DNA of 64,000 bases. It comes from a bacterium. Lineage in GTDB: Bacteria; Patescibacteriota; Minisyncoccia; JAUYLV01. A program made the translations under genes and the position numbers. A model generated the notes under the pieces. The model worked only from the letters and a program-made list of their open reading frames with translations. It searched no databases and was not told where the DNA came from. This document shows positions 2,464-51,396 of this stretch, piece by piece; positions within the stretch are counted from its first letter, which is position 1; every line of letters starts with the position of its first letter. The stretch spans positions 4,851-68,850 of the forward strand of contig JAUSGO010000016.1 in assembly GCA_030649025.1 (NCBI GenBank), written 5' to 3'.

Positions 2464-3918
2464 TCAGACTTTAGCGTTACCCTCATACGCATCAGCAACG
2501 CGCAATATGGTAGATTCGTCGAAGTGTTTGCCCATGATCTGCAGGCCCACGGGAAGTTTCTTACCATCTCTTTCAACGTAGCCGCAATTAAGAGAAATGG
2601 CGGGAATGCCGGAGATGTTCGCAGATACGGTATAGACATCGGCAAGATACATGGAGACGGGATCGCTCTTTTCTCCGATTTTAAATGCGGGCGTCGGCGA
2701 AGTGGGGGAAACGATGACGTCATATTCTTCAAAAGCCTTTTTAAAATCTTCAACGATAAGCGTACGAACCTGCTGGGCTTTTTTGTAATACGCATCATAA
2801 TATCCTGCGGATAGAGCGTAGGTGCCAAGCATTACCCGCCGCCGTACCTCATTCCCGAATCCTCTTCCGCGTGATGCGGTGTAGACTTCGAAGAGATTTT
2901 TTGCGTCAGTCTTGATATCAGTTGAAGCGGAATAGCCATAGCGGATACCGTCAAATCTCGCCAGGTTGCTTGATACTTCGCAGGGCATAATGACGTAATA
3001 CACTGCAAGCGCCCAGTGTGTGTGCGGCAGGGACACTCCACCGATACGCGCACCAAGCTTTTCTAAGGTAAAAATTGCCTGCCGCACGGCTTTCTCAACA
3101 TCCGCATCAATGCCTTCGGCAAAGTATTCGTTGGGAATCCCTACCCGCAGACCCTTGATATCTCCCGTAAGGTCTCTGGTGTAGTGCGGCACCCGGTCGC
3201 GCGCCGTCGTTGCATCAAGCGCATCGTGGCCGGCAATAACCTCAAGAAGCGCCGCCGCATCCCAGACAGTTTTGGCTAAAGGGCCTATCTGATCAAGCGA
3301 TGAAGCCATGGCGATAAGACCGTGGCGGGATACGCGCCCGTAGGTAGGCTTTAACCCTACAACACCGCAAAATCCCGCAGGCTGCCGTACCGATCCTCCC
3401 GTTTCGGATCCTAGCGCCGCAATGGCCATGTCGGCGGCAACCGCTACGGCCGAGCCGCCGCTGGATCCTCCGGGAACCCTTGAAGTATCATGAGGATTTT
3501 TGGTTGGTCCGAACGCAGAGTTTTCCGTCGAAGCTCCCATGGCAAATTCATCCATATTTGTCTTCCCCAAAAATACCGCCCCTGCGTCGCGCAATCTTCC
3601 TATGGCCGTAGCATCGTATGCTGCAATATAATTTTCTAAAATGCGCGATGCGGCCGTGGTCTTTAGTTCCTTGATAAGTATGTTGTCTTTTACGGCGATG
3701 GGGATTCCGGTAAGAATTCCTCCCTCTTTTTTTTCTAAAACCTCATCGGCTTCACCAGCCATGCGAAGCGCTTCTTTCTTGGTGATTTCAAGATACGCAT
3801 TAAGCTCTGGATTTTTTTCTTGCGCGCGCGAAAGATGGTCCGCCGCAAGTTCTCTGGCGGAAATTTCCTTTTTGTGCAGCAGTTCTGATGCTGTTTTGAT
3901 GGTGAGATGTTCGAGCAT
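2464..3918 (-). CDS. gatA: Glutamyl-tRNA(Gln) amidotransferase subunit A
   Basis: Amidase signature [13 protein letters not shown]; 484 aa; followed upstream by gatC. Confidence 0.95.
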
Positions 3919-3934
3919 ACCCCGATACCAATAT

Positions 3935-3990
3935 ACGAATTGATGCGAATGAAACGAATATTCGTATCATTCGAATGCATTCGTTGATTT
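3935..3990. promoter_or_regulatory. Cluster of CGAAT/ATTCG motifs including perfect palindromes ACGAATATTCGT (3954-3965) and GAATGCATTC (3973-3982) in the gatC-gatA spacer
   Basis: Four CGAAT and three ATTCG repeats within 55 bp inside an operon spacer; candidate protein-binding or RNA-structure site. Confidence 0.3.
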
Positions 3991-4000
3991 GTGTCGCGTT

Positions 4001-4297
4001 TTATTCAAATACCGCCTTTACTTTGATATGGCCTTCTTCGCGCTGCGGCGCCTGACCTAGCAAATCTTCTGCGCTGGATTGCTCCGGCCGTTCCTCGGAC
4101 AAGGTGTCCTTCCGGAGGGCATTCACGATTCCCGTAACCTGCTTAGTCGGCTCAACCCCTTCCGTTTGTACCTCTCGCAGCTTTCCGACAAAATCCAAAA
4201 TAGTCCCAAATTCATTTTGGAGCTTCTCGAGCTCCGCATCATCAAGCCGGATGCGGGCAAGCTCAGCGATTTTTCTTACATCGTCCGTCGTAAGCAT
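4001..4297 (-). CDS. gatC: Asp/Glu-tRNA amidotransferase subunit C
   Basis: 98 aa; N-terminus MLTTDDVRKIAELARIRLDDAELEKL... typical of GatC; immediately upstream of gatA. Confidence 0.88.
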   Translation of the reverse strand: MLTTDDVRKIAELARIRLDDAELEKLQNEFGTILDFVGKLREVQTEGVEPTKQVTGIVNALRKDTLSEERPEQSSAEDLLGQAPQREEGHIKVKAVFE

Positions 4298-4318
4298 AGC
4301 TTCTCCAGCATATCAATT

Positions 4319-4344
4319 AAAAAACTCCCGCGCAAGGCGGGAAT
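4319..4344 (-). terminator. Rho-independent terminator downstream of ligA (stem CCCGC/GCGGG, U-run on minus strand)
   Basis: Minus-strand RNA reads ATTCCCGCCTTGCGCGGGAGTTTTTT, 25 nt after the ligA stop. Confidence 0.5.
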
Positions 4345-4368
4345 TACGTCATCGTTAAAGCAAAAAAT

Positions 4369-6441
4369 CTATTTGTTAAGTAATTTTAAAAATTCCTGCT
4401 CGGTAAGTATCGATACGCCGAGCGTTCTTGCTTTCTCGTACTTCGAGCCGGGATCCGCTCCCGAGACGATGTAGCTAGTTGATTTTGAAACCGACTCCGA
4501 AATATTACCGCCCGCTTGGCGGATTTTTTCTTTTGCCTCATCCCGCGTCATCGTTCCCAGACTCCCCGTAAGCACAAAAGTCTTGCCGGAAAGTTTTCCT
4601 CCGGCCCGATGCGTTACGGAATTTTCAATGACCACTCCCGCTTTTTTAAGTTCACGGATCACGCTGCGGTTTCGCGTGTTTTTAAACCACGCCACGATGC
4701 TCCGGGCCATCACTTCTCCCACTTCGTGCAACTCCAGAAGTTTTTCGTATGACGCGTCCTGGAGCGCCTCAATGCTGCCAAAGGCGTTGGCAAGTTCAAT
4801 TGACGTCTCTTCTCCCACGTGCCGGATGCCAAGTGCATACAAAAATCGGTGCAGCGGAATACGTTTTTTTACTTCAATGGCTGCGATGAGTTTTTTTGCC
4901 GACGTTTCGGCAAAACGTTCGAGCGGCAACAAATCACCAATGGTCAGCGTGAAAATATCCTGCCTGTCGGCAACAAGATTCTGTTCCAGAAGCTGGTCAA
5001 TGATCTTTGGCCCCATGCCGACAATGTCGAAGGCCGCGCGCGAGACGAAATGATACAACTTCTCACGCTCCTGCGCGGCACAGCGCGGATTGGAGCATCG
5101 GTGAATAGCCTCGTCGTGACCCCTTACCACGCGCGAGAGACAGACCGGACAGACTTTTGGCATGTGAAAAAGCCTTTCTTTTCCCGTACGCATGCGCGTC
5201 AGCACCACCTTCACGTCGGGGATAACGTCTCCGGCTCTCCCCACGATAACCGTATCCCCGATGCGCACATCAAGCCTTTGTATCTCGTCCTCATTGTGTA
5301 GTGTGGCACGCGAGACCGTAACTCCGCCAACGTCCACGGGCCTTAAGTGCGCTACGGGAGTAAGTGCACCCGTACGGCCGACCTGCACCACAATATCCTC
5401 CACCACGGTGGTAGCCTCGCGTGAGACAAATTTATATGCGATGCCGCCTCTAGGGGTTTTCCCAACCACACCAAGGCGCAAGAGCACTTCATTGCGGTTC
5501 ACCAAGACCACGATACCGTCTATTTCATAATCGAGTTTTTCGCGGATCTTTTTTACATGTCCGTGGAATTGCTCTATCTCTTTCAAGAAACCGAGACGTT
5601 TATTGTGGGGTCCCGTTTTAAATCCAAGAGCCTTCAGGATAAAATGTTCCTCTTCATGTGTTTTCTGCCCCATGTTGGTTATGAGCGCGTACGCAAAAGA
5701 GTCAAGATGACGCGAAGCCGTAATCCTGGGATCAAGCTGCCTCACGGAGCCGGCAGCGACGTTTCTGGGGTTGGCATATGGCTCTTCCCCCCTCTCCTTA
5801 CGTTCCCGGTTGAGTGCGGAAAAAGCCTTTTTGGGCATAAACACTTCTCCTCGCACTTCCAGAGTTTCCGGCCAATGCTTTTCCAGGAACCGGGAAATGT
5901 GAAAAAGCTTCATGCGCCGCAATTCGGAAATGACATCTTGTTTTTCGCCAAGCTTCAGAGGGATAGCTTCAACCGTTTTCAGATTTTGAGTAACATTTTC
6001 TCCGATCTTCCCGTCTCCACGCGTGGATCCCTCAACAAAAAAACCGTTCTTATAGACCAGTGAGATTGCCAGCCCATCAATTTTAAGTTCTACATAATAA
6101 TCTCCAAGAAGCGGGCGCGTGATAGGAGAAAGAAGTTTTGCATTCCGTTCTTCCCACTCTTTCATCTCCTCTGGGGAAAACGCATCGGTAAGCGAGAGCA
6201 TGGGGACCCCGTGTCTGATTTTTTCGAACTTTCCAAGCGCCCTGCCGCCGACGCGCTGGGTCGGCGAATTCGGCGTGATGAGTTCCGGAAACTGCGCCTC
6301 GAGCATCTCCAGTTCATGCTTGAGCGAATCCAGGGCTGCGTCGGAGATCTCTTGCCTATCTAGGGCATGGTAAAGGTATCGGTGGTGATCGATCTCCACC
6401 CGCAGTTTTTCTATGCGTTTTTTAGCATCGGCCTTAGTCAT
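4369..6441 (-). CDS. ligA: NAD-dependent DNA ligase LigA
   Basis: 690 aa; adenylation motif KIDGLAIS, Zn-finger cysteines, C-terminal BRCT-like region. Confidence 0.95.
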   Translation of the reverse strand: MTKADAKKRIEKLRVEIDHHRYLYHALDRQEISDAALDSLKHELEMLEAQFPELITPNSPTQRVGGRALGKFEKIRHGVPMLSLTDAFSPEEMKEWEERNAKLLSPITRPLLGDYYVELKIDGLAISLVYKNGFFVEGSTRGDGKIGENVTQNLKTVEAIPLKLGEKQDVISELRRMKLFHISRFLEKHWPETLEVRGEVFMPKKAFSALNRERKERGEEPYANPRNVAAGSVRQLDPRITASRHLDSFAYALITNMGQKTHEEEHFILKALGFKTGPHNKRLGFLKEIEQFHGHVKKIREKLDYEIDGIVVLVNRNEVLLRLGVVGKTPRGGIAYKFVSREATTVVEDIVVQVGRTGALTPVAHLRPVDVGGVTVSRATLHNEDEIQRLDVRIGDTVIVGRAGDVIPDVKVVLTRMRTGKERLFHMPKVCPVCLSRVVRGHDEAIHRCSNPRCAAQEREKLYHFVSRAAFDIVGMGPKIIDQLLEQNLVADRQDIFTLTIGDLLPLERFAETSAKKLIAAIEVKKRIPLHRFLYALGIRHVGEETSIELANAFGSIEALQDASYEKLLELHEVGEVMARSIVAWFKNTRNRSVIRELKKAGVVIENSVTHRAGGKLSGKTFVLTGSLGTMTRDEAKEKIRQAGGNISESVSKSTSYIVSGADPGSKYEKARTLGVSILTEQEFLKLLNK

Positions 6442-6544
6442 GGAACAGATAACAACGCTACGCTAAACAGGTAACAAATAGAAACACCTATGCTAAGCAA
6501 ATCACAAGACCTGTTATTTGTTTTTTGCTGCCTGCTTGTTGTTC

Positions 6545-7210
6545 TTACGGCACATCGATGTACCTCTGAGAAATTGTTGTCTGAACCCGAACATCCTGCC
6601 GCTCTTTAAAATCTTTTTGGGTAATCGATTGCACATGAAGTACGATAGTGGCGCGCGGCTGACAAAGATCGAATGCCGTGCCGGGACAGGCGCTTCCCAA
6701 AGGAGGCTGTCCTACGCCGCGAATGAGAAAACCGGAGTCATCCGTCAAAAGCGCGACTTCCTGGCCGTTCAGGATCTGGACGTTTGGATTAGTATCATCA
6801 CACGGGTCCTGGGTAAAATCTATATCATTGACCAGCCGGTGCAAATTTGCAAAAGGAAACGGTATCGCTACGGGATATTCTTTAATACAATAGCTTATCG
6901 GCTTGTTATCGGAACTTCGAATGATATCCAGCTCCTTGCTGTACGTATCCGCGGGAGAATTATTGCCGTTATCGGTGCAAAAACGAACCCCGCCGGTATT
7001 CCCGCAAATGGTGGAGGCACGGATCTCGCGCGATAACGTATCCATGATAATGCGCGCATTGCTTGAGGCCTGCTCAAACGCAATGACTTTTCTCTGGCTG
7101 ACGATTGAATCAAGGAAAACAACCGAAATCAGCGTGAGCACGACGATCATGAGCGTCGCCCCAACCAACGTTTCGATCATGGTAAAACCCTTTTGACTGA
7201 TCAATTTCAT
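6545..7210 (-). CDS. Type IV pilin-like protein (class III prepilin signal, minor pilin/pseudopilin-like)
   Basis: N-terminus MKLISQKG|FTMIETLVGATLMIVV: G-F-T-x-I-E prepilin peptidase site plus hydrophobic helix. Confidence 0.75.
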   Translation of the reverse strand: MKLISQKGFTMIETLVGATLMIVVLTLISVVFLDSIVSQRKVIAFEQASSNARIIMDTLSREIRASTICGNTGGVRFCTDNGNNSPADTYSKELDIIRSSDNKPISYCIKEYPVAIPFPFANLHRLVNDIDFTQDPCDDTNPNVQILNGQEVALLTDDSGFLIRGVGQPPLGSACPGTAFDLCQPRATIVLHVQSITQKDFKERQDVRVQTTISQRYIDVP

Positions 7211-7225
7211 TCAAATTATCCAATG

Positions 7226-7277
7226 ACGAATTACGGATTACGGATTAATTTAATTCGTAATTCGCAATCCGTAACTT
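7226..7277. promoter_or_regulatory. Array of 7-mer repeats with dyad symmetry (GAATTACGGATTACGGATTA ... TAATTCGTAATTCGCAATCCGTAA) immediately upstream of pilin gene 6545-7210
   Basis: Direct ATTACGG x2 on the left arm and inverted CCGTAAT/CGTAATT copies on the right arm; a related array lies at 21531-21607. Confidence 0.4.
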
Positions 7278-7300
7278 AAAATTTACAATCTGCTCCAGTA

Positions 7301-7969
7301 TTAGAGGAAGCTCCCCAAATAATCCACCCATTTTGTGAGACGGCTCTCCAAAAGAATGCAGTTGGCATCCGGACATATTACGGGTTCCGTGTCCGAGTTC
7401 CAGAATACTTTTATTTTCACATATATCTCCGCGCATTCGGTCGAGCAGCCGACGGGATATTTTTCTATTCTTACTGCACGCCGGAAACCGGAATCACTCC
7501 ATCCTGCGGTGCTGCAGGCGCCAGTGACGCAAAGATTCGCATAAAAACCCGTTGCGTCTTGAACGTAGACCTGCTGCCATTCTTTCGCCGCAGAGCAACA
7601 GGCCACGATCCAGCCGCTTGAAATATCATCATTGTCTACAAGCCGGATGCGCGTCTGAAATCCCACCGGACCCGTTGCGGGAATATCGTCATTCCATTGG
7701 GGATTTGTCGGCGGAATGCCGGTTTGCTTGATCGCATCGGATATTTGCAGCAGGGTGTTGTCTCGGATATTACGCACAACCTCAATTCCCTCCTGGGCAA
7801 GGTTCGCAGCGATGATCTCCTGCCGAACGGCGGGAGAGATATGAATAGTCTTTGAGATAACGATAAAAGCGCCGGTTGCACCGACAGTAAGCACAAAAAG
7901 CGCGATAATGGTTTCGATGAGGGAAAAACCATTTTTCGCATGTGGGTAGCGAATCTTTGTGTTGTTCAT
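7301..7969 (-). CDS. Type IV pilin-like protein (PilV/minor-pilin-like)
   Basis: N-terminus ...HAKNG|FSLIETIIALFVLTV class III signal peptide motif. Confidence 0.75.
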   Translation of the reverse strand: MNNTKIRYPHAKNGFSLIETIIALFVLTVGATGAFIVISKTIHISPAVRQEIIAANLAQEGIEVVRNIRDNTLLQISDAIKQTGIPPTNPQWNDDIPATGPVGFQTRIRLVDNDDISSGWIVACCSAAKEWQQVYVQDATGFYANLCVTGACSTAGWSDSGFRRAVRIEKYPVGCSTECAEIYVKIKVFWNSDTEPVICPDANCILLESRLTKWVDYLGSFL

Positions 7970-8004
7970 GAAATTCAGAAGAGCATCCGTCTTTTGAGAA
8001 GCCC

Positions 8005-11000
8005 TTAGGGAGCCGCAATGCAGGCGGATGAGCCATACGACGAGTCAACTTCGGGAGTTGTCGCTCGCAGACGGTAGCAGGCAAACGTGCCGCCGGGAGT
8101 ATTCCCTATATTATCCGAGTATGATGTCTGGTTCGTGATATTGATCAGTTCGGTAAAGTTTGAACAGCTTGGTCCGATGACCGTGCATCGCTCGATCTTG
8201 TATCCGGTATTATTTACCGAATTATCCGTCCAGAAAAGGTTTATCTTTTTCCCGGGACCCGTGGTGAACGAGAGGCCGCTGGGCGCAAGAAGCCAGGTTC
8301 GGAGAGAGAACGTACTTGAGTACGATGAATACGCGCCTGTGGTGGCCGCACGCATGCGATAGCAATATTTAGCTTCTTGGCTAAGACCGCTATCGGTGAT
8401 ACTGCGTGCGCCGGTAGTAGCCGTACCGGCAATGGTCGCAACGACCGCAAAACTCACCGCAGAACAGTTCGCATCTCCGCGCTCAAGATACGTATTCATC
8501 TCTCCCAGAGAATTATCTTGCCAGTTTATCTGCGCGGCGGTGAATCCGGTCGAGGTTGTTGTTGCCAGAATCGACGGCGTATTGGGCGGCGTGAAGACGT
8601 TTCCCGACGCATTGGAGCATGTGGAAACGCCGATGGCATCCACTGCTTTGATGCAATACTGATATGCATTGCCTTCCGTTACCGATGTATCGGCATAAGT
8701 AAATGTGCTGCCGCCGATGTCCGCGCCGACTTGCGCACCGCTTGATGCGGGGTTACACGCTGCGCCGCTACAGCGAATGACTCTGAATGCGGTCGGTACG
8801 CCCCAGGTATCGGTGAAATTCGAAAGCCAGAAAAGATCAATGCGAGTACTGGAGACGACCGTAGGAGGCGTATTCAGTGTCGGGGTTTTGGGCACAACGT
8901 CTGGCGTGGTAAATGTCACGCAATTAGAAGGAGCGGAGTCTCCGGTCGCATTTACCGCTTTTACCCAATATGCGTATGCGGTCTTCGGCCTTGTTGCCGG
9001 AGACATTACATCTATATAACTTCCCGGCTGAGGCCCGGGAGTTCCGGTGCCAATAAGCGTCGATACAGCCGGAGCGCCACTACACAAAGCGCCATTGAAC
9101 CGCTCTATTTTGACATTCTGGATAGTGCTTAAAGGAGGGTTGGTCCACTGTAAATTCACCTGTGACGTTGCGCCAGAGCCCGTGCCGGAGCTTGTGGGAG
9201 CCGGAAGCGCCTGAAGATTCGTTGGCGCACCGGCATAGGTCGTTGCGTAAAGCGTATTTGAACACGAAGAAGAATAGGGCCAGGAGGCATTTTGCCCTAT
9301 GATGCAATATCCGTATGTTGTGCCTTCAGAAAGCGTCGTATCTGAAGCCGTAAAATCCGGAGATGTTCCCGTATACGTAAGGGTCGTGTCAACGGGCGTG
9401 CAGGCACTTCCCGTACAGCGCCTTATGATAAAACTTGTGGCAACCTTGAACTTGCCGCTTGTCGGCGAATCAGCGGCGATGTCATGCCAAGAAAGATTAA
9501 TCCGGGTATCCGATACGACAACGGGAATGGCAAGTAGTGGAGGATACGGCGCCTCATCTTCCGTTTTTGAGTTTGCTTCCCTGTAAGCCCAGGCCGAGGG
9601 ACCCGAAGCATTGATTGCGCGCACGCGATAGCAGTAAAGCGTATTTGGCGTCACGCCAAGAGGACTTTGTGAATCCGGTGGACATCCGGGTCCGGGAGGT
9701 GACGGATAACGAGTTGCGTCGCAATCATTGTAATTCGTATCGTCTTGTGGGGTGGTGACAAGGGAAGAGAAAACGGCCGTCACATCGCATGTTCCGGGAG
9801 CAACAAGGGTTGATCGCTGAAGCTCGAATGAGGATTCCGTGGCGATCGAGGGGAAATTCCCTCCCCAGTTAAGAAATACTTTCCTTGAAGATGCGTTAGC
9901 CGAGGTCCAGAGAGGAGCTGGCGGAGATGTAAGAGTGCTTGCGGTATTGCTGTAGCCGGAAGGACCTGTCGCATTTGTCGCACGTACTTTGTAACAATAC
10001 GTGGTCTCGGCGGACAAGCCCGTGTCCGTATAAGTGCCGGTATTTGCTGAAACAATGATCGTCTGAAGCGTTGATGCGCAACCCGGCGCCATGCGCACGA
10101 TCTCAAAATTCGCCTCGTTGACCGCATTGTCGATCCAGGAAATTTTTATTTCTGACACGGAAAGAGGCAGGGCAGAGAGACCGGAGGGGTCTGCCGGGAC
10201 AGAGGGATAACACTGTCCTATTGCCGTGGGGCCCGGACATCCTGGCACGGTACAGCAGATATCACCCAATGCGTCATTCGCACAAAGCCCTCCGATGCCG
10301 CAGGCGATAGTCCCCCCGCAACCGTTCGACCAATACCCGCAAACCGCGCCTCCGGAAACTATATTTGCGCAAAAAAACGGCACGCAGGGCTTGGAAAGCA
10401 CCTGTCCGCTCCTAATCTCAATGCGGCCGGAGCTTGAAACGCGGATTTGGCGAAGTATTGCCGTGTTGTCGGAAAATTCCAGAGGAAAATCGGTATAAGA
10501 AAGGGTTGAGCTTGCGGTCGGATCTGCTACATGGAGCACAAAGGTGGCGGGGTCTGGCGGTTCGAAATACACGTCATCAAGCACCGCCCCCAACACAAAA
10601 CGAACTTTCCCGGCTTCGGGAAGCAGGAAACTTTTCACGGTTGTTGTGGAAACGTAAGATGTCGCCGGGCATGAAGCGGGATTATTTGTGTTGTCAAAAC
10701 ATTCGCGCTGGCCCTTCCATTGTCGGGAATACCTTGAAAGATTGACGCCGCAGGGCACTGACGTTGAGGAAGGAATCTTCGTATACAAAATATAAGAATT
10801 TGGATCTCCCGTCGCGGGATTGGGTGCGTGAATTCCAAAACCGCACGGTGGAAGCCCGCCGAACTGCGTTGGATCGCTTGAAAGCGCTAATGCCTGCGCT
10901 GTGCGGATGTCCTGCGCAAGCTTATTTGCCGCCCGCTCCATGGAGCCAACGGACCCCACGCGTCTGTAGCTTGTTAAAACCGTTGCGCCGATAAGCATCG

Positions 11001-11127
11001 AGATGCCAATAACCACCAAAATTTCCATGATCGTGAAACCATTGTTGCGAACTATTATTGCTTTATCTTTTATATACTCCTGGTGCATAGCGAAATTTTG
11101 GAAGAATATTATTACCTTCAAATTCAA
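8005..11127 (-). CDS. Giant (1040 aa) pilin-like protein: prepilin N-terminus fused to multiple fibronectin type III-like repeats; candidate pilus-associated adhesin
   Basis: N-terminus ...NNG|FTIMEILVVIGISMLI; repeated FN3 hallmarks YCYRVRAINASGPS, YCYKVRATNATGPSGYS, YCYRMRAATTGAYSSYS, ACYRLRATTPEVDSSYGSS. Confidence 0.7.
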   Translation of the reverse strand: MNLKVIIFFQNFAMHQEYIKDKAIIVRNNGFTIMEILVVIGISMLIGATVLTSYRRVGSVGSMERAANKLAQDIRTAQALALSSDPTQFGGLPPCGFGIHAPNPATGDPNSYILYTKIPSSTSVPCGVNLSRYSRQWKGQRECFDNTNNPASCPATSYVSTTTVKSFLLPEAGKVRFVLGAVLDDVYFEPPDPATFVLHVADPTASSTLSYTDFPLEFSDNTAILRQIRVSSSGRIEIRSGQVLSKPCVPFFCANIVSGGAVCGYWSNGCGGTIACGIGGLCANDALGDICCTVPGCPGPTAIGQCYPSVPADPSGLSALPLSVSEIKISWIDNAVNEANFEIVRMAPGCASTLQTIIVSANTGTYTDTGLSAETTYCYKVRATNATGPSGYSNTASTLTSPPAPLWTSANASSRKVFLNWGGNFPSIATESSFELQRSTLVAPGTCDVTAVFSSLVTTPQDDTNYNDCDATRYPSPPGPGCPPDSQSPLGVTPNTLYCYRVRAINASGPSAWAYREANSKTEDEAPYPPLLAIPVVVSDTRINLSWHDIAADSPTSGKFKVATSFIIRRCTGSACTPVDTTLTYTGTSPDFTASDTTLSEGTTYGYCIIGQNASWPYSSSCSNTLYATTYAGAPTNLQALPAPTSSGTGSGATSQVNLQWTNPPLSTIQNVKIERFNGALCSGAPAVSTLIGTGTPGPQPGSYIDVMSPATRPKTAYAYWVKAVNATGDSAPSNCVTFTTPDVVPKTPTLNTPPTVVSSTRIDLFWLSNFTDTWGVPTAFRVIRCSGAACNPASSGAQVGADIGGSTFTYADTSVTEGNAYQYCIKAVDAIGVSTCSNASGNVFTPPNTPSILATTTSTGFTAAQINWQDNSLGEMNTYLERGDANCSAVSFAVVATIAGTATTGARSITDSGLSQEAKYCYRMRAATTGAYSSYSSTFSLRTWLLAPSGLSFTTGPGKKINLFWTDNSVNNTGYKIERCTVIGPSCSNFTELINITNQTSYSDNIGNTPGGTFACYRLRATTPEVDSSYGSSACIAAP

Positions 11128-11172: not shown

Positions 11173-12096
11173 TTACCACCTGAACGGCGCGAGATGCACC
11201 GACTTTAGTATAGCATCTCCGAAGAAAAAAGCGGCGATTGCGGCGGGAGCCAAAAACGCTCCGAACGGCACTTCCGATTTCAACGTCTTTTTATTGACCA
11301 GGATGAGCGCCAAACCGACAAGAGAACCGCTGAAAGACGCGAGCAGAAGCGCAACAAGAACATTCCAAAATCCAAGAAACAATCCCATGAAGACTGCGAG
11401 CTTCACGTCGCCAAGTCCCATCCAGACACCACGAGAAATAATGATGAGTAAAAGAAAAAATGCCGCCCCGACCAAAGATCCTGCCACGTTTGGCAAACTG
11501 CAATTCACTGTTGGAATTCCGCACGCAAAGATAAAACGGTTGGCGAGAATGAGACACGAAAAGAGCGCAATAGCGGGCAACATGACACGGTCGGGGATGA
11601 GAAAATGGCGTACGTCCGTTACAAATATGACCAAAAACACGCAGATAGCGAATAACGCATAGCTGATGGCAAGAATATTTGTAACATCGGGAAAAAGTCC
11701 GGTTATAGAGAATTGTGTTGCTGCTTCAGAAACATTCGGCAAAAAACCAAGGGGCTCTGTTGCGCGCTTCTCCATCCACCAATATGTAAAACTAAAAAGA
11801 ACGCCGCTTGACAGCTCCACAAGAGGATATTGAAGGGAGATGCGTTCTTTGCACGAACGGCACCTGCCGCCAAGGACCACAAAGGACCATAACGGAATGA
11901 GTTCGTACCACTCGAGAATTCGCGCGCAATGACGGCAGTGGGATCGCCTCTGCACCACCTCCTCGCCTTCCGGAATGCGCCAGATGAGCACATTAAGGAA
12001 GCTTCCCACAATAAGGCCGAGAAGGAATAAGAACACCAGAATAAACCATAGGGGCATCATAAACATAAGTATACCCGTTAGGAGAAGCTCGACCAA
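11173..12096 (-). CDS. pilD: Prepilin peptidase / N-methyltransferase PilD (A24 family)
   Basis: N-terminal Zn-binding CRHC...CRSC tetracysteine, multiple TM helices, conserved GDVKL aspartate region; 307 aa. Confidence 0.9.
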   Translation of the reverse strand: MVELLLTGILMFMMPLWFILVFLFLLGLIVGSFLNVLIWRIPEGEEVVQRRSHCRHCARILEWYELIPLWSFVVLGGRCRSCKERISLQYPLVELSSGVLFSFTYWWMEKRATEPLGFLPNVSEAATQFSITGLFPDVTNILAISYALFAICVFLVIFVTDVRHFLIPDRVMLPAIALFSCLILANRFIFACGIPTVNCSLPNVAGSLVGAAFFLLLIIISRGVWMGLGDVKLAVFMGLFLGFWNVLVALLLASFSGSLVGLALILVNKKTLKSEVPFGAFLAPAAIAAFFFGDAILKSVHLAPFRW

Positions 12097-12231: not shown

Positions 12232-12258
12232 ATAAAAAAACTGCCCCATGGGCAGTCC
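12232..12258 (-). terminator. Rho-independent terminator (ACTGCCC-ATGG-GGCAGT plus U-run on minus strand) after gene 12266-12916
   Basis: Minus-strand RNA reads ACTGCCCATGGGGCAGTTTTTTT just after the stop codon. Confidence 0.55.
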
Positions 12259-16028: not shown

Positions 16029-16628
16029 TTATGGCATGGCGTAAACCCGTATTCTGACGCTTGCGGCAATGTCACCCGAAGAAGATTTGAATGAGGTTGA
16101 TTGATTTTGGCCAGACGCCGTGCCGTATGTTTGCATGCCTTTTATTGGTGAAAAAAGGGCTTGCTCGATATCAACGGCGTAAGCGAAATTTTCCAGGTGA
16201 GCTATAAATTCCATAAGGTGCTCAAACGACCCCACCAGCGTCAGTTGAAAGACAAAAGATGATTTTATATTTGCTCCGGCGACCAACGAAGGCTCGCTTA
16301 TCAGTTGGATTTCCTTGTAAAGTTGGACTTCTCGTGCAAGATCTTCCATGGCCTCGATGAACGACACGAGATTCTCGGGATCAAGAAGCTGGGACCTGAT
16401 AAGCTGGATATTCGCGCTGATGCGTTCAAATTCTGATTTTGTTGAAGAAAATTTCTCAACAGCACTCTCAAATCCTTCTAGGCGATAAAATAGGTCCTGG
16501 TAGCGTTCGGGAAAGCTCTGTAGGTGCAAGTATAAAGGCAGTATGACCCCAAGGATCATGCCGGCACCGACTACCAGCCATAGCGTGCTAAAAAGTATGA
16601 CCTTATCTTTTCCGCTTAAATGCGTCAT
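16029..16628 (-). CDS. pilO: Type IV pilus assembly protein PilO-like
   Basis: 199 aa, N-terminal TM helix then coiled-coil region; positioned directly after pilN. Confidence 0.6.
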   Translation of the reverse strand: MTHLSGKDKVILFSTLWLVVGAGMILGVILPLYLHLQSFPERYQDLFYRLEGFESAVEKFSSTKSEFERISANIQLIRSQLLDPENLVSFIEAMEDLAREVQLYKEIQLISEPSLVAGANIKSSFVFQLTLVGSFEHLMEFIAHLENFAYAVDIEQALFSPIKGMQTYGTASGQNQSTSFKSSSGDIAASVRIRVYAMP

Positions 16629-16637
16629 GAATGCGGG

Positions 16638-17189
16638 CTACTGTTTGGCTTTGGAAATAATGGTCAGTGAAAACGTGAAGGGAATGTCCGTTTCGCGAAG
16701 AAGATTGGCAAGAGGAAAATTAATGTCACCGTACCCGGAAGATTCTTTTTGTATCTTATCCCTCAGGAGGAGCAATTGGCTTCTCGTTGGCGCCATGCCC
16801 GAAAAAACTATTTTCTGCGCCTGTATATCAACGCTAAGCGTTGTAAGCTGAATAACCGGGGGAATAAGGGCGATCAAATCTTTGATTGCGCCAAATGCCC
16901 GCAACTGCTCTTCTTGGATGCGATTCATGCGCTCAATATCATTCTTGAAAAGACGCAATTGTCCTTGAAATTTGGTGATCTCCTTTACTTCCGACACGTT
17001 CGACAGATTGGCAATGCGTTGGTTGAGTTCGCGGACCTTCCACTGTCCAAAAAGCTCTTGGCCGAACATGAGCAGTGAAAGGAATAAGAGTAATAAGAAA
17101 AACATCTCGCCAAAAAACATGACGCGCCAGTTCAGCTCTTCAAATTGAAGATTTTTTTTCGCCTGCTCCGGTAGAAGGTTTATAGACAT
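16638..17189 (-). CDS. pilN: Type IV pilus assembly protein PilN
   Basis: Conserved N-terminal INLLP motif (MSINLLPEQ), single TM helix, periplasmic domain; 183 aa. Confidence 0.75.
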   Translation of the reverse strand: MSINLLPEQAKKNLQFEELNWRVMFFGEMFFLLLLFLSLLMFGQELFGQWKVRELNQRIANLSNVSEVKEITKFQGQLRLFKNDIERMNRIQEEQLRAFGAIKDLIALIPPVIQLTTLSVDIQAQKIVFSGMAPTRSQLLLLRDKIQKESSGYGDINFPLANLLRETDIPFTFSLTIISKAKQ

Positions 17190-17198
17190 GAAATGGAA

Positions 17199-18212
17199 TT
17201 AGTGTGCGCCTCCAAATTCGTGATATCCCCGCAAGGCAAGCCCCAGCGCCGTTGTGTAGCCAAGGGAATCTTTAAAGGGAAGCATCGGAACTTCGCGAAG
17301 AGGGGGGCGTAAAATATTTACCCAGGGATTCGCCAATAGAACGGCGATCTCCGCTTCCTGCGCAAGAGCGGCGGTAAAACCCGGGGTTTGCACGAAATCT
17401 CCACAAACAAGAATTTGTTTTACCTCTACGTGCAATTGGTGCGCATGCGCCGAATGAGTCTGAAAAAAATCGATATACTGGCGCGCGTATCCGGCAAGCG
17501 CTTTTATTGTCACTCCCATAGAAGAACTTGTGATATCCTTTCCCGCGATGGAGACGGAAGCGGTAAAACGCACCATGGAACCGGCATAAATAATGAATGT
17601 CGTCCGATGGTGCGCCACGTCAATGATCAATAAAATTTCCTCGCCGCCCGTCGGGGGAACGATGCTTCTGGCGGAGGAGAGAGCATCGACTTCAAATGCA
17701 ACGGGCTTAAGGCCGACTTTTTCAAAAAGTGCGGCATAGCTATCCACCAAAACCTTTGGAGAGGCGGCCACAAGAATATCAAGGTGGTCATCGCCACTAT
17801 GCCGAGCAATCTCCCAATCATAATAGACCTCGGCCAGAGGTAGCGGGATGTTCGCCTCAATCTCCCAAATAATCGCCTGGGTGATTTCTTCGGAAGCCAT
17901 CTTGGGTAATTGTACGATACGGATGAAACTTTGGGGTTCCGGCAAAGACGCCATAACATACTTTGTGCGGATACTTCCTCCCTTGGCAGTCGTCAAAGCC
18001 TCTTGCAGGGCTGCTATGGTTTTTGGCACGTCGGTTATGGTGCCGTTCACCACCGCGCCTTCTTGAAGCGTCACGGCGGAGAAGCCTGCCAGCGTCAAAG
18101 AACCTCTTTCTTCTTTAAGATACGCGAGACGTATGCTGTGATCGGATATATCACATCCAAACGCCGACGGACGAACTTTAAATAATTTTTCGAAATGATT
18201 CAAAATTGCCAT
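17199..18212 (-). CDS. pilM: Type IV pilus assembly ATPase-fold protein PilM (actin-like)
   Basis: 337 aa; actin/FtsA-like fold motifs, ends ...TALGLALRG as in PilM; first gene of the pilMNO operon. Confidence 0.85.
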   Translation of the reverse strand: MAILNHFEKLFKVRPSAFGCDISDHSIRLAYLKEERGSLTLAGFSAVTLQEGAVVNGTITDVPKTIAALQEALTTAKGGSIRTKYVMASLPEPQSFIRIVQLPKMASEEITQAIIWEIEANIPLPLAEVYYDWEIARHSGDDHLDILVAASPKVLVDSYAALFEKVGLKPVAFEVDALSSARSIVPPTGGEEILLIIDVAHHRTTFIIYAGSMVRFTASVSIAGKDITSSSMGVTIKALAGYARQYIDFFQTHSAHAHQLHVEVKQILVCGDFVQTPGFTAALAQEAEIAVLLANPWVNILRPPLREVPMLPFKDSLGYTTALGLALRGYHEFGGAH

Positions 18213-18592: not shown

Positions 18593-21526
18593 CTACTCCA
18601 CCTCTCTCCATTTCTGTATCACCCAGCTTGCGCCAGGACCCGAGGAGAACTGCGCATTGGCCAAGCCCTGTTGATAGGTGATGGTTGCCGTCTGACTTAA
18701 TTGAAGCTTATACGATGTAAGTTCCGTTGCCGAGACGCCATTATGAAGATAGATGAGGCCGCTGGACGCATAAAAAATTGCTCCATCGGCGTTGTTGAGC
18801 AGGTCGATAGCCGAATCGTGGTCGGTACAATTGCCTGCCGGCACGCCCGTACATGAAGAGGTGGTGAGCAACATCAAATAACTGCCGCTCTGCCCCGAAC
18901 CCCGAAAAGTACCGTTGTTGGCAACATGTATCCATTCGTCGGCAAGCACCGCTCCGCTCAACGAACCGTATCCCGCATCAAGCTGAATGGTCGAGCCGTT
19001 CGAAATATCAATGTATCCTTGCACATACACCGTGCCCTTGATGGTAAGCACCACGTTGTTTGTCGTGAGGATGAGATTGCCGTTGATGACCTTCGGACCA
19101 AGCGACGTGGAGGATCCCGGAGCGAAGTCTCCATTATACGTTCCGCCGCTAGCAGCATCCAGCTTCCACTGGTCGATCTGCCCCTGGGAAATAGGCATGT
19201 TTTGCGGAGGGGGATCTGCGGGAGGCGTGGTGGGCGTGGTGGTAACGCCGTTCACCGTACAGTTGCTGATACTATTATACGCCGCATCGCCCCCGATAGG
19301 CGAGGAACAATCCTCCAAGACATCCGTAAAAACGTCTCCGACGGCAGAGCTGTCAATAAAGATGGTGCTAAAAGCGCTGGAGGTGACGGTACTATTCTCA
19401 ATGCGGTGGGCATGCGCGTTTCCTCCGATATCCACGTTATCGATCTTTGTTTCTATGCCTCCCATGAATATTTGAAAATTGAGATCTCCGCCCGCATCCG
19501 TCCACACCGGACTTCCGGCATTCCAGCTCGGAGACCATTTGCCAAGACCGTAGGGATACCCATTCATCGTATCAATGCCCATCACCCAGTAATTTGAGTT
19601 ATCCTGGTTCGTATCAATAAGGAGCCAGTAGGTGGTGCCGGCGGTAAGCACGGGAGATGTAGCGAATGTCACATCGACCCAGGCGTAGGCTCCTGTCGCA
19701 AGATTTGCCGAAAGCGTTCCTGAAGCAAGCACGTCTCCGGGATTTTTCCCCGGGTCAGACCCGCTATTTGTGTTTATCTGCACTGTCGCATTCTGTGGAG
19801 AGCCGACTTTTCTGATATAGAGACGTATTTTGTTTATCGGCGCGGAGGTTGATGTTTGGAAGCTTTGCGCGATATCAACCTGGCTTTGGAGCGGCGTGCA
19901 GTTCGCATTGGCGCATCGGACAAAATTGAGATTATCTCCCGAAGCATCATTATACGAAGCGCGCCCAAATCCGTCCGAGCCCAGCGCAAGCGAGGTATAA
20001 AGACCCGTGTCGCCCGACGTGTCCGGAACCGCAATGGCTTTTGTTGAACAATCGGCATCGGTGCATCTGACGAATTTTATACTGCCGTTTGAGCCGTCGT
20101 AGGAGGTGATGCGGGCAAAGTCGTCTCCGCCCATCTTAATGGAACTGTACCGGCCCACATCACCACCGGAGTCCACGGCTGTAAGCACGCTGCCGGAACA
20201 ATTGTCATTCGTACAGCGGGCGAATTTCAGATTGTCGCTTGTATCGTCATAGTAGCTGATGCGCGCAAAGCCGTCCGTGCCAAGCGCAACAGAGGTGTGC
20301 CACGCGATCTCCGAAGCTGCATCCACGATGGCAATAATCGGGGAAGAGCAGTTGTTGTCGTTACAACGAGCGAATTTTAGGTCGTCAAGTGTCTGGTCAA
20401 TATAACTTATACGCGCCACGTTGTCCGAGCCAAGGACAAGAGCGGTGTACGTTCCCACATCATCTGCGGTATCGACCGCTCGAATGTTATTTGTGGTGCA
20501 ATCCACATCGATACATCGCGCAAATTTGAGATCGCCGTCGCTTACGCTGTAATACGCGATGGAAGCGAGATCGCCCGCATCAAGCACTATCGATGAAAAT
20601 TGCCCTACATCTCCGGTCGAATCCACCGTAGTGATATTCTTGGCTGTGCAGTCGGCGTTGGTGCAGCGGACGAATTTCAAGTTGCCGCCGGAATTATCAT
20701 AGTAGCTGATGCGCGCAAAACCGTCAGAGCCCAGAGCCAGCGAAGAGAATTGGCCTACGTCTCCGGAAGATTCAACAACCGTGATGTTCTTCGCGGTGCA
20801 GTCGACGTTGGTGCAGCGGACGAATTCAAGATCTTTGTCACTGTTGTCGTAGTCATAGTAGCTGATACGCGCAAAACCGTCAGAGCCCAGAGCTAGCGAA
20901 CTATGCTGTCCTGTCTTACCCGCCGTATCCACCGCGGTAACAACACTCCCCGTGGCAAGTCCAAAGAAAAAATCATCGTTATATGTTGTCCACTCCTGAT
21001 TGGGCGTACTTTGCGTGCCTCCAGCAACCCATGCGTCTCCTGTAATTTGGGCGCCCGCAAGTCCCGTAATATTCCCGTTTGAGTAGACATTGCCTACGAC
21101 CTTGCTGTTATTTTCCATAATAAGTCCCCCGTCACCGACCTGTACGCCGTAGTGGAATTCGACATCGGACGTGTTTTTGATAAGTCGCGCGGTAAGCCGC
21201 CTAATGTACGATGAAATATCTCCGGTTGAGGTGACGGACACATCGTTCCCGCCACCACCCGAAATGGTGACAACCGTACCGCCATTAAGCGCAAATGTCT
21301 CGCTTGAACTGTAGTTTTTGGCGAATTTTATGCGGTAGAGCACGTCCTCGAGACCCGATTCGCTTGTTACAATACTTTTAAGTGAACTGATCGTCTTGCG
21401 CGCGATGCGCTCATCGTTAAGCGACGAGAGTACCATAAGCGCCACCACAAAAAGCGAGACGGCAAATACAAGGATAATGATGGTTAATGACGCAAACCCA
21501 TTTCTTTTCTCCAAATCAATTACCAC
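18593..21526 (-). CDS. Large (977 aa) pseudopilin-like surface protein with seven tandem ~48-aa Cys-containing repeats (possible beta-propeller) and a long C-terminal domain
   Basis: N-terminus MVIDLEKRNG|FASLTIIILVFAVSL (pilin-like helix but no Glu+5); repeats such as SSLALGSDGFARISYYD..NLKFVRCTNADCTAKNIT at 19892-20941. Confidence 0.7.
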   Translation of the reverse strand: MVIDLEKRNGFASLTIIILVFAVSLFVVALMVLSSLNDERIARKTISSLKSIVTSESGLEDVLYRIKFAKNYSSSETFALNGGTVVTISGGGGNDVSVTSTGDISSYIRRLTARLIKNTSDVEFHYGVQVGDGGLIMENNSKVVGNVYSNGNITGLAGAQITGDAWVAGGTQSTPNQEWTTYNDDFFFGLATGSVVTAVDTAGKTGQHSSLALGSDGFARISYYDYDNSDKDLEFVRCTNVDCTAKNITVVESSGDVGQFSSLALGSDGFARISYYDNSGGNLKFVRCTNADCTAKNITTVDSTGDVGQFSSIVLDAGDLASIAYYSVSDGDLKFARCIDVDCTTNNIRAVDTADDVGTYTALVLGSDNVARISYIDQTLDDLKFARCNDNNCSSPIIAIVDAASEIAWHTSVALGTDGFARISYYDDTSDNLKFARCTNDNCSGSVLTAVDSGGDVGRYSSIKMGGDDFARITSYDGSNGSIKFVRCTDADCSTKAIAVPDTSGDTGLYTSLALGSDGFGRASYNDASGDNLNFVRCANANCTPLQSQVDIAQSFQTSTSAPINKIRLYIRKVGSPQNATVQINTNSGSDPGKNPGDVLASGTLSANLATGAYAWVDVTFATSPVLTAGTTYWLLIDTNQDNSNYWVMGIDTMNGYPYGLGKWSPSWNAGSPVWTDAGGDLNFQIFMGGIETKIDNVDIGGNAHAHRIENSTVTSSAFSTIFIDSSAVGDVFTDVLEDCSSPIGGDAAYNSISNCTVNGVTTTPTTPPADPPPQNMPISQGQIDQWKLDAASGGTYNGDFAPGSSTSLGPKVINGNLILTTNNVVLTIKGTVYVQGYIDISNGSTIQLDAGYGSLSGAVLADEWIHVANNGTFRGSGQSGSYLMLLTTSSCTGVPAGNCTDHDSAIDLLNNADGAIFYASSGLIYLHNGVSATELTSYKLQLSQTATITYQQGLANAQFSSGPGASWVIQKWREVE

Positions 21527-21607: not shown

Positions 21608-22237
21608 TCAATATCTGCGGAGTGTGACGGTCGTGGTTGCCGCAAATAAATCATTCTCGGATCCGCGAGAGAAGCGATGATGCGCGGAAAGCCCCACCCG
21701 CAGCGACTCCGACGTAGTTACCGGGTTAAGACGCACGATGCGGAACCCGTCTACCGTCACGCGATCGCTCGTAAGCGCTTTTGCATTCTCCGATTCTCGT
21801 TTTATGAACAATCTTCCGTTGTCAATATAAAAATCCACAAACGCTATGTCTTCCCCGGCCGGAGGGTTAATCGTTGTCTGCAGGGAGAGTTGAGACATAT
21901 TTGAATTAAAGATGCTTGTGGGAGCATAGACTGCGCTGGCGAACTTTCCTTCATACAGCATTGTATCCAGAGCGACGGCAACGCTTGAGACGACTTCGCG
22001 CGAACGCGCACTTTTATAGCCACCGGTCAGCAGTTGCACCACCAAACCCACAATAAGCACAGAAAGCATGAGAAAGAGTGCCAAATAAATGAGAATTTCG
22101 TAGAGCGTGAAACCCTTCTGTTGTTCGTTATACAACATGCTGCGCATAACGTTTATGGCGCGTCCTGTTTGCGGAACTTTTGATTTTTGCTGTATCATTT
22201 TGATCTTTTGGTTATCTTTGTAGTATACCACGCGCAC
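21608..22237 (-). CDS. Type IV pilin-like protein (minor pilin; true start probably an internal Met giving a short leader)
   Basis: Motif ...NEQQKG|FTLYEILIYLALFLMLSVLIV class III prepilin signal. Confidence 0.7.
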   Translation of the reverse strand: MRVVYYKDNQKIKMIQQKSKVPQTGRAINVMRSMLYNEQQKGFTLYEILIYLALFLMLSVLIVGLVVQLLTGGYKSARSREVVSSVAVALDTMLYEGKFASAVYAPTSIFNSNMSQLSLQTTINPPAGEDIAFVDFYIDNGRLFIKRESENAKALTSDRVTVDGFRIVRLNPVTTSESLRVGLSAHHRFSRGSENDLFAATTTVTLRRY

Positions 22238-27274: not shown

Positions 27275-27862
27275 TCAATCTGATGGCACCGGCGCAGCAA
27301 GATGTTTCAGCCCCTTCGCCATAGCAACAAACTGCGGTCCTAAAATATCCGTGTGCAGAAGTAGTCCGTCGTACGTCTGCAAAGAAGACTTCTTACAACT
27401 ATCGGCTAAATAGCCAAGGCACTTGAGAAACCGCCGCGCGAATCTTTCAAGAATGTCATGGAAATCTGCATGGACGGCTTCTCTTGCTCCTGCGAGTTCC
27501 TCAAGCGTTGTAAAAAGCAACTCCCAAAGCGCCACATCAACCGCGTGTGGGTAGAGATACGTATCATACATATTCGCAACACCCTCTCCGAGGTATGCAA
27601 TCTCTGTATGCGTACGCAATGCCGAAAACGTCTTATGCGACATGGCGTCAATGAGCACGCCTCTTCCGTGGTTTTTCGCGATCATAAATTCGCCATGCGT
27701 CAAAAGTTCCAGATGCCCCCTGAGCTTCGATTTTTCATGCCGAACTCCGCGCGCAACCGCCTCAACCTTGCCGTTATGCGGCGTATAAAACGAAATTAGG
27801 CGATCCGCATCGCCCCAGTTTTCATGACCTATGACAATTCCTTCAAATCTCGATTCGTGCAT
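27275..27862 (-). CDS. recO: DNA repair protein RecO-like
   Basis: 195 aa; N-terminal OB-fold-like region (EGIVIGHENWGDADRLISFYT..GKVEAVARG); 20-nt overlap with ileS start. Confidence 0.65.
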   Translation of the reverse strand: MHESRFEGIVIGHENWGDADRLISFYTPHNGKVEAVARGVRHEKSKLRGHLELLTHGEFMIAKNHGRGVLIDAMSHKTFSALRTHTEIAYLGEGVANMYDTYLYPHAVDVALWELLFTTLEELAGAREAVHADFHDILERFARRFLKCLGYLADSCKKSSLQTYDGLLLHTDILGPQFVAMAKGLKHLAAPVPSD

Positions 27863-51365: not shown

Positions 51366-51396
51366 ATTTTGCCTGTATCCGTATTGTCATTAGCCT

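Follow-up and report, generated by a model that had tools for sequence, protein, structure and literature searches.

A 1027-residue candidate modular minor pilin with a ten-cysteine linker and seven FN3 domains in a Patescibacteria genome

The subject of this study is a giant pilin-like protein encoded on the minus strand of a 64,000-nucleotide stretch of bacterial DNA (contig JAUSGO010000016.1 of GenBank assembly GCA_030649025.1, positions 4,851 to 68,850, lineage Patescibacteriota), the whole of which is hereafter called the window. A prepilin-type N-terminus and pilin head are followed in this protein by a ten-cysteine linker and by seven tandem fibronectin type III (FN3) domains. The favored reading, to which a probability of roughly 0.65 is assigned, is that of a minor pilin of the modular type, processed by the prepilin peptidase PilD and displayed on a type IV pilus with the FN3 array as a stalk. 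If the protein is displayed in this manner, the odds that the window copy is itself an adhesin are roughly even, and a role as tip adhesin is plausible; a link to an episymbiotic lifestyle would be drawn from the taxonomy only. An original prediction made from the same letters had proposed a candidate pilus tip adhesin anchored by its pilin part. The anchored display is supported by the prepilin-type head, the FN3 graft and the operon shared with pilD and the minor pilins, and the gene is located, as had been stated, between pilD and two small pilin genes.

The open reading frame (ORF) 8005..11127 counts 1040 codons only when it is read from a TTG at 11127. The ATG at 11088, 13 codons further, is the likely start, and the ORF announced as a 1040-residue protein is therefore real but probably yields 1027 residues. 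The latter sequence is 100% identical to that of a 1027-residue protein (P0001) from an NCBI metagenome-assembled genome (MAG), annotated 'hypothetical protein [bacterium]'. Since the source is a MAG-derived sequence, an assembly or annotation artefact was considered, in which a small pilin gene and an FN3 gene would have been fused by misassembly or by an undetected frameshift, the latter having already been raised in the original prediction. No support for such a fusion was found: the reading frame is unbroken across the 1027 codons, the FN3 repeats cover the C-terminal part without gaps, the linker cysteines are invariant, and the order of head, ten-cysteine linker and FN3 array is common to five independent assemblies (NCBI, Logan, ENA, JGI). 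This shared architecture makes the artefact hardly credible and it was rejected.

The N-terminus consists of the hydrophilic leader MHQEYIKDKAIIVRNNG immediately followed by FTIMEILVVIGISMLIGATVL, with Gly at position -1, Phe at +1, Glu at +5 and a hydrophobic segment some 22 residues long, so that the canonical class III signal noticed at the outset is indeed present. G17, F18 and E22 are conserved at 90-100% in alignments of 25 and 150 relatives, and cleavage by PilD after Gly17 is predicted from the sequence. The Pfam N_methyl model matches all of the 25 aligned family members at E<=0.1, and relatives score better on it than the window copy: a 1299-residue homologue (P0002) has a precomputed match, and the orthologue found in locus L096, described below, reaches 19.7 bits. 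Structure prediction with AlphaFold2 (AF2) was run on aa 1-392 with the 150-sequence alignment, a full-length single-sequence run having given an unusable predicted local distance difference test score (pLDDT) of 31.7. The resulting model (mean pLDDT 78.3) displays a 50-residue helix (aa 20-69) followed by about ten strands, and pLDDT is mostly 86-97 across the head (aa 20-228), for which a lollipop-type pilin fold is predicted. The same model includes the first FN3 domain, the predicted fold of which matches solved FN3 domains.

A profile of the head, built from three full-length homologues, was searched against 1.84 billion representative proteins. This retrieved 3277 relatives at a threshold of E<=1e-3, of which 269 also passed E<=1e-10, while E<=1e-30 was reached by three proteins only, which are the giant forms; among the 150 matches listed, nearly all are 170-230 aa long. 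Alignment with 22 ordinary-sized relatives places the end of the head at its final strand (…SGRIEI…, around aa 228), which is also where the small pilins end. As the head stops where its small homologues stop, all the sequence past it can be regarded as a C-terminal graft. When compared to PDB sequences, the head profile matched only pilin alpha1 helices (best E 4.7e-9) and no globular domain of GspH, FimU or ComGD. In hhalign comparisons, the match to E. coli GspH was the longest and the best (probability 97%, E 1e-10, 71 columns comprising alpha1 and the first strand), those to GspG, GspI and GspJ extending over 48, 41 and 32 columns, respectively. The NCBIfam ComGD model gave an E-value of 1.7e-3 on the giant pilin, and the Pfam GspH model (PF12019), which matched 4 of 25 relatives, gave no match in it.

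The graft is dominated by the FN3 array. The Pfam fn3 model (PF00041) reaches 51.4 bits on the whole protein (E 1.3e-13, cut-off 25), which confirms the FN3 modules initially proposed; their number, given as at least four, is in fact seven. These repeats, named D1 to D7, tile aa 298-1027 with no unassigned sequence between them. Single repeats are divergent with respect to the Pfam model, D1 and D4 scoring 23.5 and 22.7 bits and the others being weak or absent. For the repeat test, a hidden Markov model (HMM) was seeded solely with D1 and D4, which are individually near the Pfam threshold, and was run with shuffled controls. It detected D2, D5, D6 and D7 at E-values reported as 1.7e-8 to 2.9e-9 (D6 is listed at 1.9e-9), D3 being weak with this seed (E 1.7e-3, inside the range of the shuffled controls). 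An iterated family HMM recovered seven repeats in the giant pilin and nine in each of the two longest relatives. Domain-by-domain comparison pairs D1, D4, D6 and D7 of the window protein with D1, D4, D8 and D9 of the nine-FN3 proteins (P0002 and P0003), which likewise end in FN3, and the difference between seven and nine domains corresponds to a duplicated internal unit.

The linker that joins the head to this array contains cysteines at positions 235, 240, 250, 257, 263, 269, 278, 279, 284 and 293. All ten are invariant in three full-length members and the count of ten is found in four members. No match to the linker was obtained in Pfam, NCBIfam or PDB sequences, and a search with a profile of head plus linker found it in no other protein except a 494-residue fragment (P0121); AF2 confidence is low over this segment (pLDDT 46-65). 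Cys-rich segments had been noted initially; the protein totals 36 cysteines, distributed as 4, 10, 2, 4, 4, 2, 4, 2 and 4 over the head, the linker and D1 to D7. An even number per module is also observed in P0002, and such counts would fit intradomain disulfides in an extracytoplasmic protein.

Five giant members of the family were found in all: the window protein, P0002 from a Logan assembly (1299 aa, 37% identical), P0003 from an NCBI MAG (1312 aa, 36% identical), the P0121 fragment and the L096 orthologue. P0002 and P0003 both carry nine FN3 domains. When GTDB genomes and JGI metagenomes were scanned with head and linker patterns, about 90 small homologues and no further giant members were obtained, and the L096 protein was found only via synteny at ligA. 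The LigA protein of the window finds its closest matches, at 58-60% identity, among proteins that bear the names Ca. Nealsonbacteria or Patescibacteria, which assigns the organism to the Candidate Phyla Radiation (CPR). In L096 (LigA 68%), recJ, pilD, the giant pilin, two pilins and ligA-gatC-gatA follow one another. The giant pilin of this locus (3668-8341, plus strand) is a syntenic orthologue of 1557 aa with the same head, the ten-cysteine linker and five FN3 domains. Past these are located a GH115_C-like domain (47 bits), a further beta-rich segment of about 340 residues with Ig-like repeats and, at the C-terminus, a Laminin_G_3 (PF13385) domain of the concanavalin A (ConA)-like lectin type (98 bits). 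As an observation in its own right, this orthologue is a ready candidate for a glycan-binding pilus adhesin in a related genome from the CPR.

The same position is occupied by an ordinary pilin in locus L098 (LigA 61%), which contains pilM-N-O, pilB, a response regulator gene, pilT, pilC, pilD and a 192-residue head homologue (E 1e-45), followed by two pilins, a 131-residue ORF and ligA-gatC-gatA. Besides the window, pilD is adjacent to the giant pilin in L001, L002 and L096; in L001 and L002 it lies directly upstream of a 1312-aa or 1299-aa pilin with nine FN3 domains, and further pilins come after. The orthologous position, between pilD and ligA-gatC-gatA, can accordingly hold a protein of 192, 1027, 1299/1312 or 1557 aa, with 0, 7, 9 and 5 FN3 domains, respectively. 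Lectin-type cargo is found at that position in one lineage, and three of the four complete giant members end in plain FN3.

Head-only relatives in GTDB genomes all belong to the Patescibacteria (Parcubacteria, Nealsonbacteria, Saccharibacteria and one 'Humimicrobiaceae'). In 10 Patescibacteria loci, three pilins follow one another, led by a head homologue of 175-215 aa; the next two are PilV-like and PilW-like, and this triad usually comes shortly after one or two small major-type pilins. In the window, the gene of the giant pilin is followed first by that of a PilV-like pilin and next by that of a ComGF/GspJ-like pilin, and the third position holds a pilin in related loci too. The 84 complete head-homologue ORFs gathered from genome and metagenome loci have a median length of 181 aa, a length of 300 aa being exceeded by just two of them. 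These two (L053 1745-3103 and L048 7974-9080, both on the plus strand) carry grafts of two or three divergent InlB B-repeats (Flg_new_2), and a protein of the same head family from the representative-protein search (P0156) carries a bacterial surface Ig-like graft. Because of these other, shorter grafts, the first-pilin position appears to have been used repeatedly as a display scaffold.

A number of results weigh against the proposed display on a pilus or against its details. On the isolated head, Pfam N_methyl (PF07963) is sub-threshold (16.6 bits, E 0.006, cut-off 21.2), and the Pfam scan of the full-length protein does not list it; of the two domains expected by the original prediction, fn3 is thus above its threshold and N_methyl is not. 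TIGR02532 is not listed in the NCBIfam scan of the giant pilin either. Both fold searches were dominated by FN3 matches and gave no comparison of the head with solved pilin folds. The hhalign match to GspH does not reach beyond the first beta strand, and the NCBIfam model of GspH (TIGR01708) gives only 22.1 bits (E 1.3e-4) with respect to a cut-off of 80. For these last two reasons the head is labelled GspH-like only: it would be a GspH-like head in GspH position, short of demonstrated membership of the GspH family. The genes pilB, pilC and pilT are absent from the 64-kb window, and no binding-type domain was found by Pfam after the FN3 array of the window copy. Bacterial FN3 arrays are frequently inert spacers, as often as they are ligand binders. 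Finally, models of the type II secretion system and of type IVa pili place the GspH/FimU-type subunit closer to the base than any other member of the tip complex, from which it follows that the array would leave the filament just below the tip and not at the tip itself.

The sub-threshold scores of N_methyl and TIGR02532 are also what would be expected if the protein were not a pilin, but an ordinary secreted or membrane-anchored FN3 surface protein with a prepilin-like hydrophobic N-terminus. This was rejected as very improbable, since Gly-1, Phe+1 and Glu+5 are present, the 215-residue head is homologous end to end with thousands of small pilins, AF2 predicts alpha1 and a beta head, and pilD is adjacent in every locus. 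It is less improbable, although still unlikely, that the pilin part serves as an anchor for a surface protein that never enters an extended pilus, alpha1 holding it, after PilD processing, in the cytoplasmic membrane or in a short pseudopilus while the FN3 domains span the wall or an S-layer. Archaeal sugar-binding proteins with class III signals provide an analogy, an array of about 25 nm suits the crossing of an envelope, and an extracytoplasmic part of about 100 kDa is bulky for a filament that has to cross the cell wall; moreover, pilB, pilC and pilT are not adjacent in the window genome. The head nevertheless has an orthologue in a minor pilin of ordinary, small size that occupies the equivalent position of a complete type IV pilus operon (L098), keeps the residues conserved in its family and is co-located with the other two pilins of the triad in all five giant-bearing loci. 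In addition, a 50-kDa modular pilin is incorporated in the pili of a monoderm (PMC8179133).

The protein could also be a true pilus subunit in which the FN3 array is structural or regulatory instead of adhesive and acts as a spacer fixing the distance to the target, a brake against full retraction or a docking platform for a partner secreted separately, in the way CofB docks CofJ (a precedent cited in PMC8179133). A spacer would agree with the lack of a binding-type domain in the window copy, with the L096 orthologue, where the FN3 domains occupy a typical spacer position between the pilin and putative carbohydrate-binding modules, and with the variation of the FN3 number (5, 7 or 9) through a duplicated unit, as expected of a stalk of tunable length. 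This reading is nonetheless held to be rather improbable, as no candidate partner gene was identified, the plain FN3 ending of three of the four complete members points to a maintained rather than a truncated state, and orthologues of D6 and D7 are clearly recognisable in the nine-FN3 proteins, which fits a conserved distal function.

The preferred reading, a minor pilin displayed on the pilus, can be translated into a mechanism, proposed on the basis of what is established for type IV filaments. The preprotein would enter the membrane, where the adjacent PilD would cut after Gly17 and methylate Phe18. The alpha1 helix would let the subunit join the two downstream minor pilins in an assembly-priming complex, to which a second giant pilin-like protein of the window (977 aa, 18593-21526) would probably also belong. 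Because pili grow from their base, this complex would stay at the distal end of the filament. An FN3 domain measures about 3.5 nm, and the array (7 x ~3.5 nm, ~25 nm) would project together with the disulfide-bonded linker as a semi-flexible stalk. In the FN3-only version the stalk itself would be the exposed and presumably contact-making part, while in the lectin-bearing orthologue it would present the carbohydrate-binding modules. The array is taken to be primarily a stalk because the L096 orthologue has its FN3 domains in spacer position, between the pilin and the lectin-type modules; this orthologue is at the same time the strongest indirect argument for an adhesive theme. The FN3-only tip, on the other hand, appears to be a maintained state and may itself make contact, since three of the four complete members end in plain FN3 and their terminal domains are orthologous.

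Modular pilins were catalogued by Raynaud et al. (2021), who counted 1219 such proteins distributed over 264 architectures, with CPR genomes contributing many of them (PMC8179133). The combination of pilin and FN3 (IPR012902-IPR003961) is among the 15 commonest architectures, with one FN3 domain in 12 proteins, two in 1 and three in 2 (PMC8179133). The window protein is composed, as these pilins are, of an N-terminal pilin module, a short linker and non-pilus modules, which is the architecture by which the modular pilin is defined by these authors. It differs from them by the number of its FN3 domains (seven, and nine in close relatives, versus 1-3), by its ten-cysteine linker, which is without counterpart in domain databases, and in that the expanded subunit is the first minor pilin, the one in GspH position. 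The FN3 pilins of that catalogue have not been studied, and the window protein would probably have been missed by the screen because its N_methyl match is sub-threshold. The concept is therefore unchanged, FN3-bearing modular pilins, many from CPR, having been described bioinformatically in 2021. What is new is the extension of the modular-pilin range from 3 to 7-9 FN3 domains and to more than 1000 residues, together with an uncharacterised ten-cysteine linker module. A literature search on giant or large pilins in CPR found no description of this pilin family.

Other known systems share part of this organization. The minor pilins PilB (von Willebrand factor A, vWA) and PilC (ConA-like lectin) of Streptococcus sanguinis have been shown to mediate adhesion to proteins or glycans (PMC8179133, PMC9934059). 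They resemble the window protein by a bulky C-terminal graft on a minor pilin in a bacterium without outer membrane, and the L096 orthologue ends in the same lectin superfamily (PF13385) as PilC. They possess, however, one globular effector module placed directly on the pilin, at about 50 kDa, whereas in the window protein seven FN3 domains form a chain of 730 residues and an effector module cannot be recognised, and no sequence relationship is detectable between their heads and that of the window protein. GspH, FimU and ComGD offer the best N-terminal profile match and are likewise first in the minor-pilin set, ahead of the I-like and J-like pilins, but these pilins are of about 140-170 aa without C-terminal extension. 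PilX1 and PilX2 of Nanosynbacter lyticus TM7x are CPR minor pilins with beta-jelly-roll and beta-propeller C-terminal domains, for which a role as adhesins at the tip has been proposed, and efficient binding to the host requires PilX2 (PMC11623550). They are of a different pilin class (the signal of PilX2 is non-canonical) and without FN3 array; the 977-residue protein of the window is closer to them. CofB, a minor pilin from the type IVb pilus of enterotoxigenic E. coli, carries extra beta-rich domains on a flexible linker behind the C-terminus of its pilin part and is a proposed tip adaptor (PMC8179133), but differs by its description as a trimerising protein with two extra domains in a diderm type IVb system. 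The 'Pam' pili of CPR were set aside, as they form an unrelated donor-strand-exchange system.

A more far-reaching reading is put forward tentatively, with odds clearly below even: the five-member clade could be a cargo-swappable 'fishing-rod' pilin of a Patescibacteria lineage, in which the terminal FN3 domains of the FN3-only versions would recognise the host surface. If so, the FN3 stalk would add about 18-32 nm of reach, which is sizeable with respect to the mean pilus lengths of 77 and 122 nm of the cultivated CPR bacterium TM7x (PMC11623550). The distal end would be swapped between lineages, being lectin-type in one and plain FN3 elsewhere, and the giant pilin would be a host-range determinant of an episymbiont. 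In CPR/Patescibacteria, a role in host contact is better supported for type IV pili than for any other organelle. The locus series suggests how a core minor pilin was turned into a long display stalk and names candidate attachment determinants in uncultivated lineages. Together with the lectin-bearing relative, it makes the choice between stalk and adhesin directly testable.

Coordinates of the giant pilin, its modules and its neighbours in the window (a slash marks the predicted cleavage site)
Feature	Position	Strand	Basis
Giant modular pilin, complete coding sequence (1027 aa + stop)	8005..11088	-	ORF listing, translation, upstream sequence
Leader peptide, aa 1-17, ending in Gly before the predicted PilD cleavage site (NNG/FTIME)	11038..11088	-	Sequence; alignment with family leaders
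Pilin module, aa 18-232: predicted alpha1 helix (~aa 20-69) and beta-strand head	10393..11037	-	AF2, head profile, alignment, hhalign
Ten-cysteine linker, aa 233-297	10198..10392	-	Invariant Cys, without database match
FN3 D1, aa 298-392	9913..10197	-	Pfam fn3 23.5 bits alone
FN3 D2, aa 393-514, long insertion, 4 Cys	9547..9912	-	D1+D4 HMM E 1.7e-8; family HMM 1e-24
FN3 D3, aa 515-624, 'RCxGxxC' type, 4 Cys	9217..9546	-	42% identical to D5; family HMM 5.8e-27
FN3 D4, aa 625-733	8890..9216	-	Pfam fn3 22.7 bits alone; 57% identical to P0002 domain 4
FN3 D5, aa 734-835, 'RCxGxxC' type, 4 Cys	8584..8889	-	D1+D4 HMM E 1.9e-8; family HMM 1e-25
FN3 D6, aa 836-933	8290..8583	-	D1+D4 HMM E 1.9e-9; orthologous to P0002/P0003 domain 8 (45-46% identity)
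FN3 D7, aa 934-1027, C-terminal, 4 Cys	8008..8289	-	D1+D4 HMM E 2.9e-9; best match is the last P0002/P0003 domain
Prepilin peptidase PilD, directly upstream of the giant pilin, start codon uncertain	11173..12096	-	Pfam A24_N_bact 113.6 bits, Peptidase_A24 51.9 bits
Second minor pilin of the triad, 222 aa, KNG/FSLIE, PilV/GspI-like	7301..7969	-	Pfam N_methyl 26.4 bits; NCBIfam PilV E 4.6e-7, below cut-off
Third minor pilin of the triad, 221 aa, QKG/FTMIE, ComGF/GspJ-like	6545..7210	-	Sequence; NCBIfam ComGF E 1e-4, sub-threshold

The scan for promoters and terminators returned a number of sites no higher than in shuffled sequence. A terminator-like hairpin (12238-12258, minus strand; nine pairs then a T-run) is nevertheless present between a DUF5715 gene and pilD, and its location upstream of pilD points to a separate transcription unit made up of pilD, the giant pilin and the two small pilins. 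Further pilus genes of the window are pilM/N/O (16029-18212, minus strand) and two pilins, at 21608-22237 and 55229-55909.

The first of these two pilins (209 aa, QKG/FTLYE, minus strand) is located upstream of the 977-residue giant pilin-like protein, also on the minus strand, and pilM/N/O are located downstream. The N-terminus of the latter protein, MVIDLEKRNG/FASLTIIILVFAV, is prepilin-like without Glu+5, and the protein contains a tandem series of five or more units, each of about 50 aa ('GDVGQFSSLALGSDGFARISYYD…LKFVRCTNADCT'), that are propeller-blade-like; a domain of the choice_anch_R type (37.5 bits) was also detected, together with a weak match to DUF4082. With a non-canonical signal and a putative beta-propeller, this protein resembles the description of TM7x PilX2, a proposed candidate adhesin. 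The second pilin (55229-55909, 226 aa, minus strand) is GspG-like (RG/FTLIELLVVISIIGLLA) and reaches 27.2 bits with N_methyl; it could be the major pilin and displays 14 consecutive glycines soon after alpha1. A 1349-residue ORF (59789-63838, minus strand) contains, from its listed GTG start, a Gly8 run, an FN3-like domain, three CarboxypepD_reg domains and a Big_5 domain, CarboxypepD_reg being one of the modules that modular pilins most often carry as cargo. A signal peptide cannot be seen in this ORF, the true start of which may sit near or beyond the end of the window.

Two observations concern aminoacyl-tRNA synthetases. The isoleucyl-tRNA synthetase of the window (27843-31310, minus strand, 1155 aa) contains a His_Phos_1 insert at aa 499-669 (E 1.8e-37), which separates the two halves of its class I catalytic domain, and the leucyl-tRNA synthetase of a related MAG contig (L001 1398-4400, plus strand) carries a NUDIX domain insertion. 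Finally, two adjoining Peptidase_C39_2-like proteins of 307 and 280 aa are encoded at 50442-52239 on the plus strand of the window.

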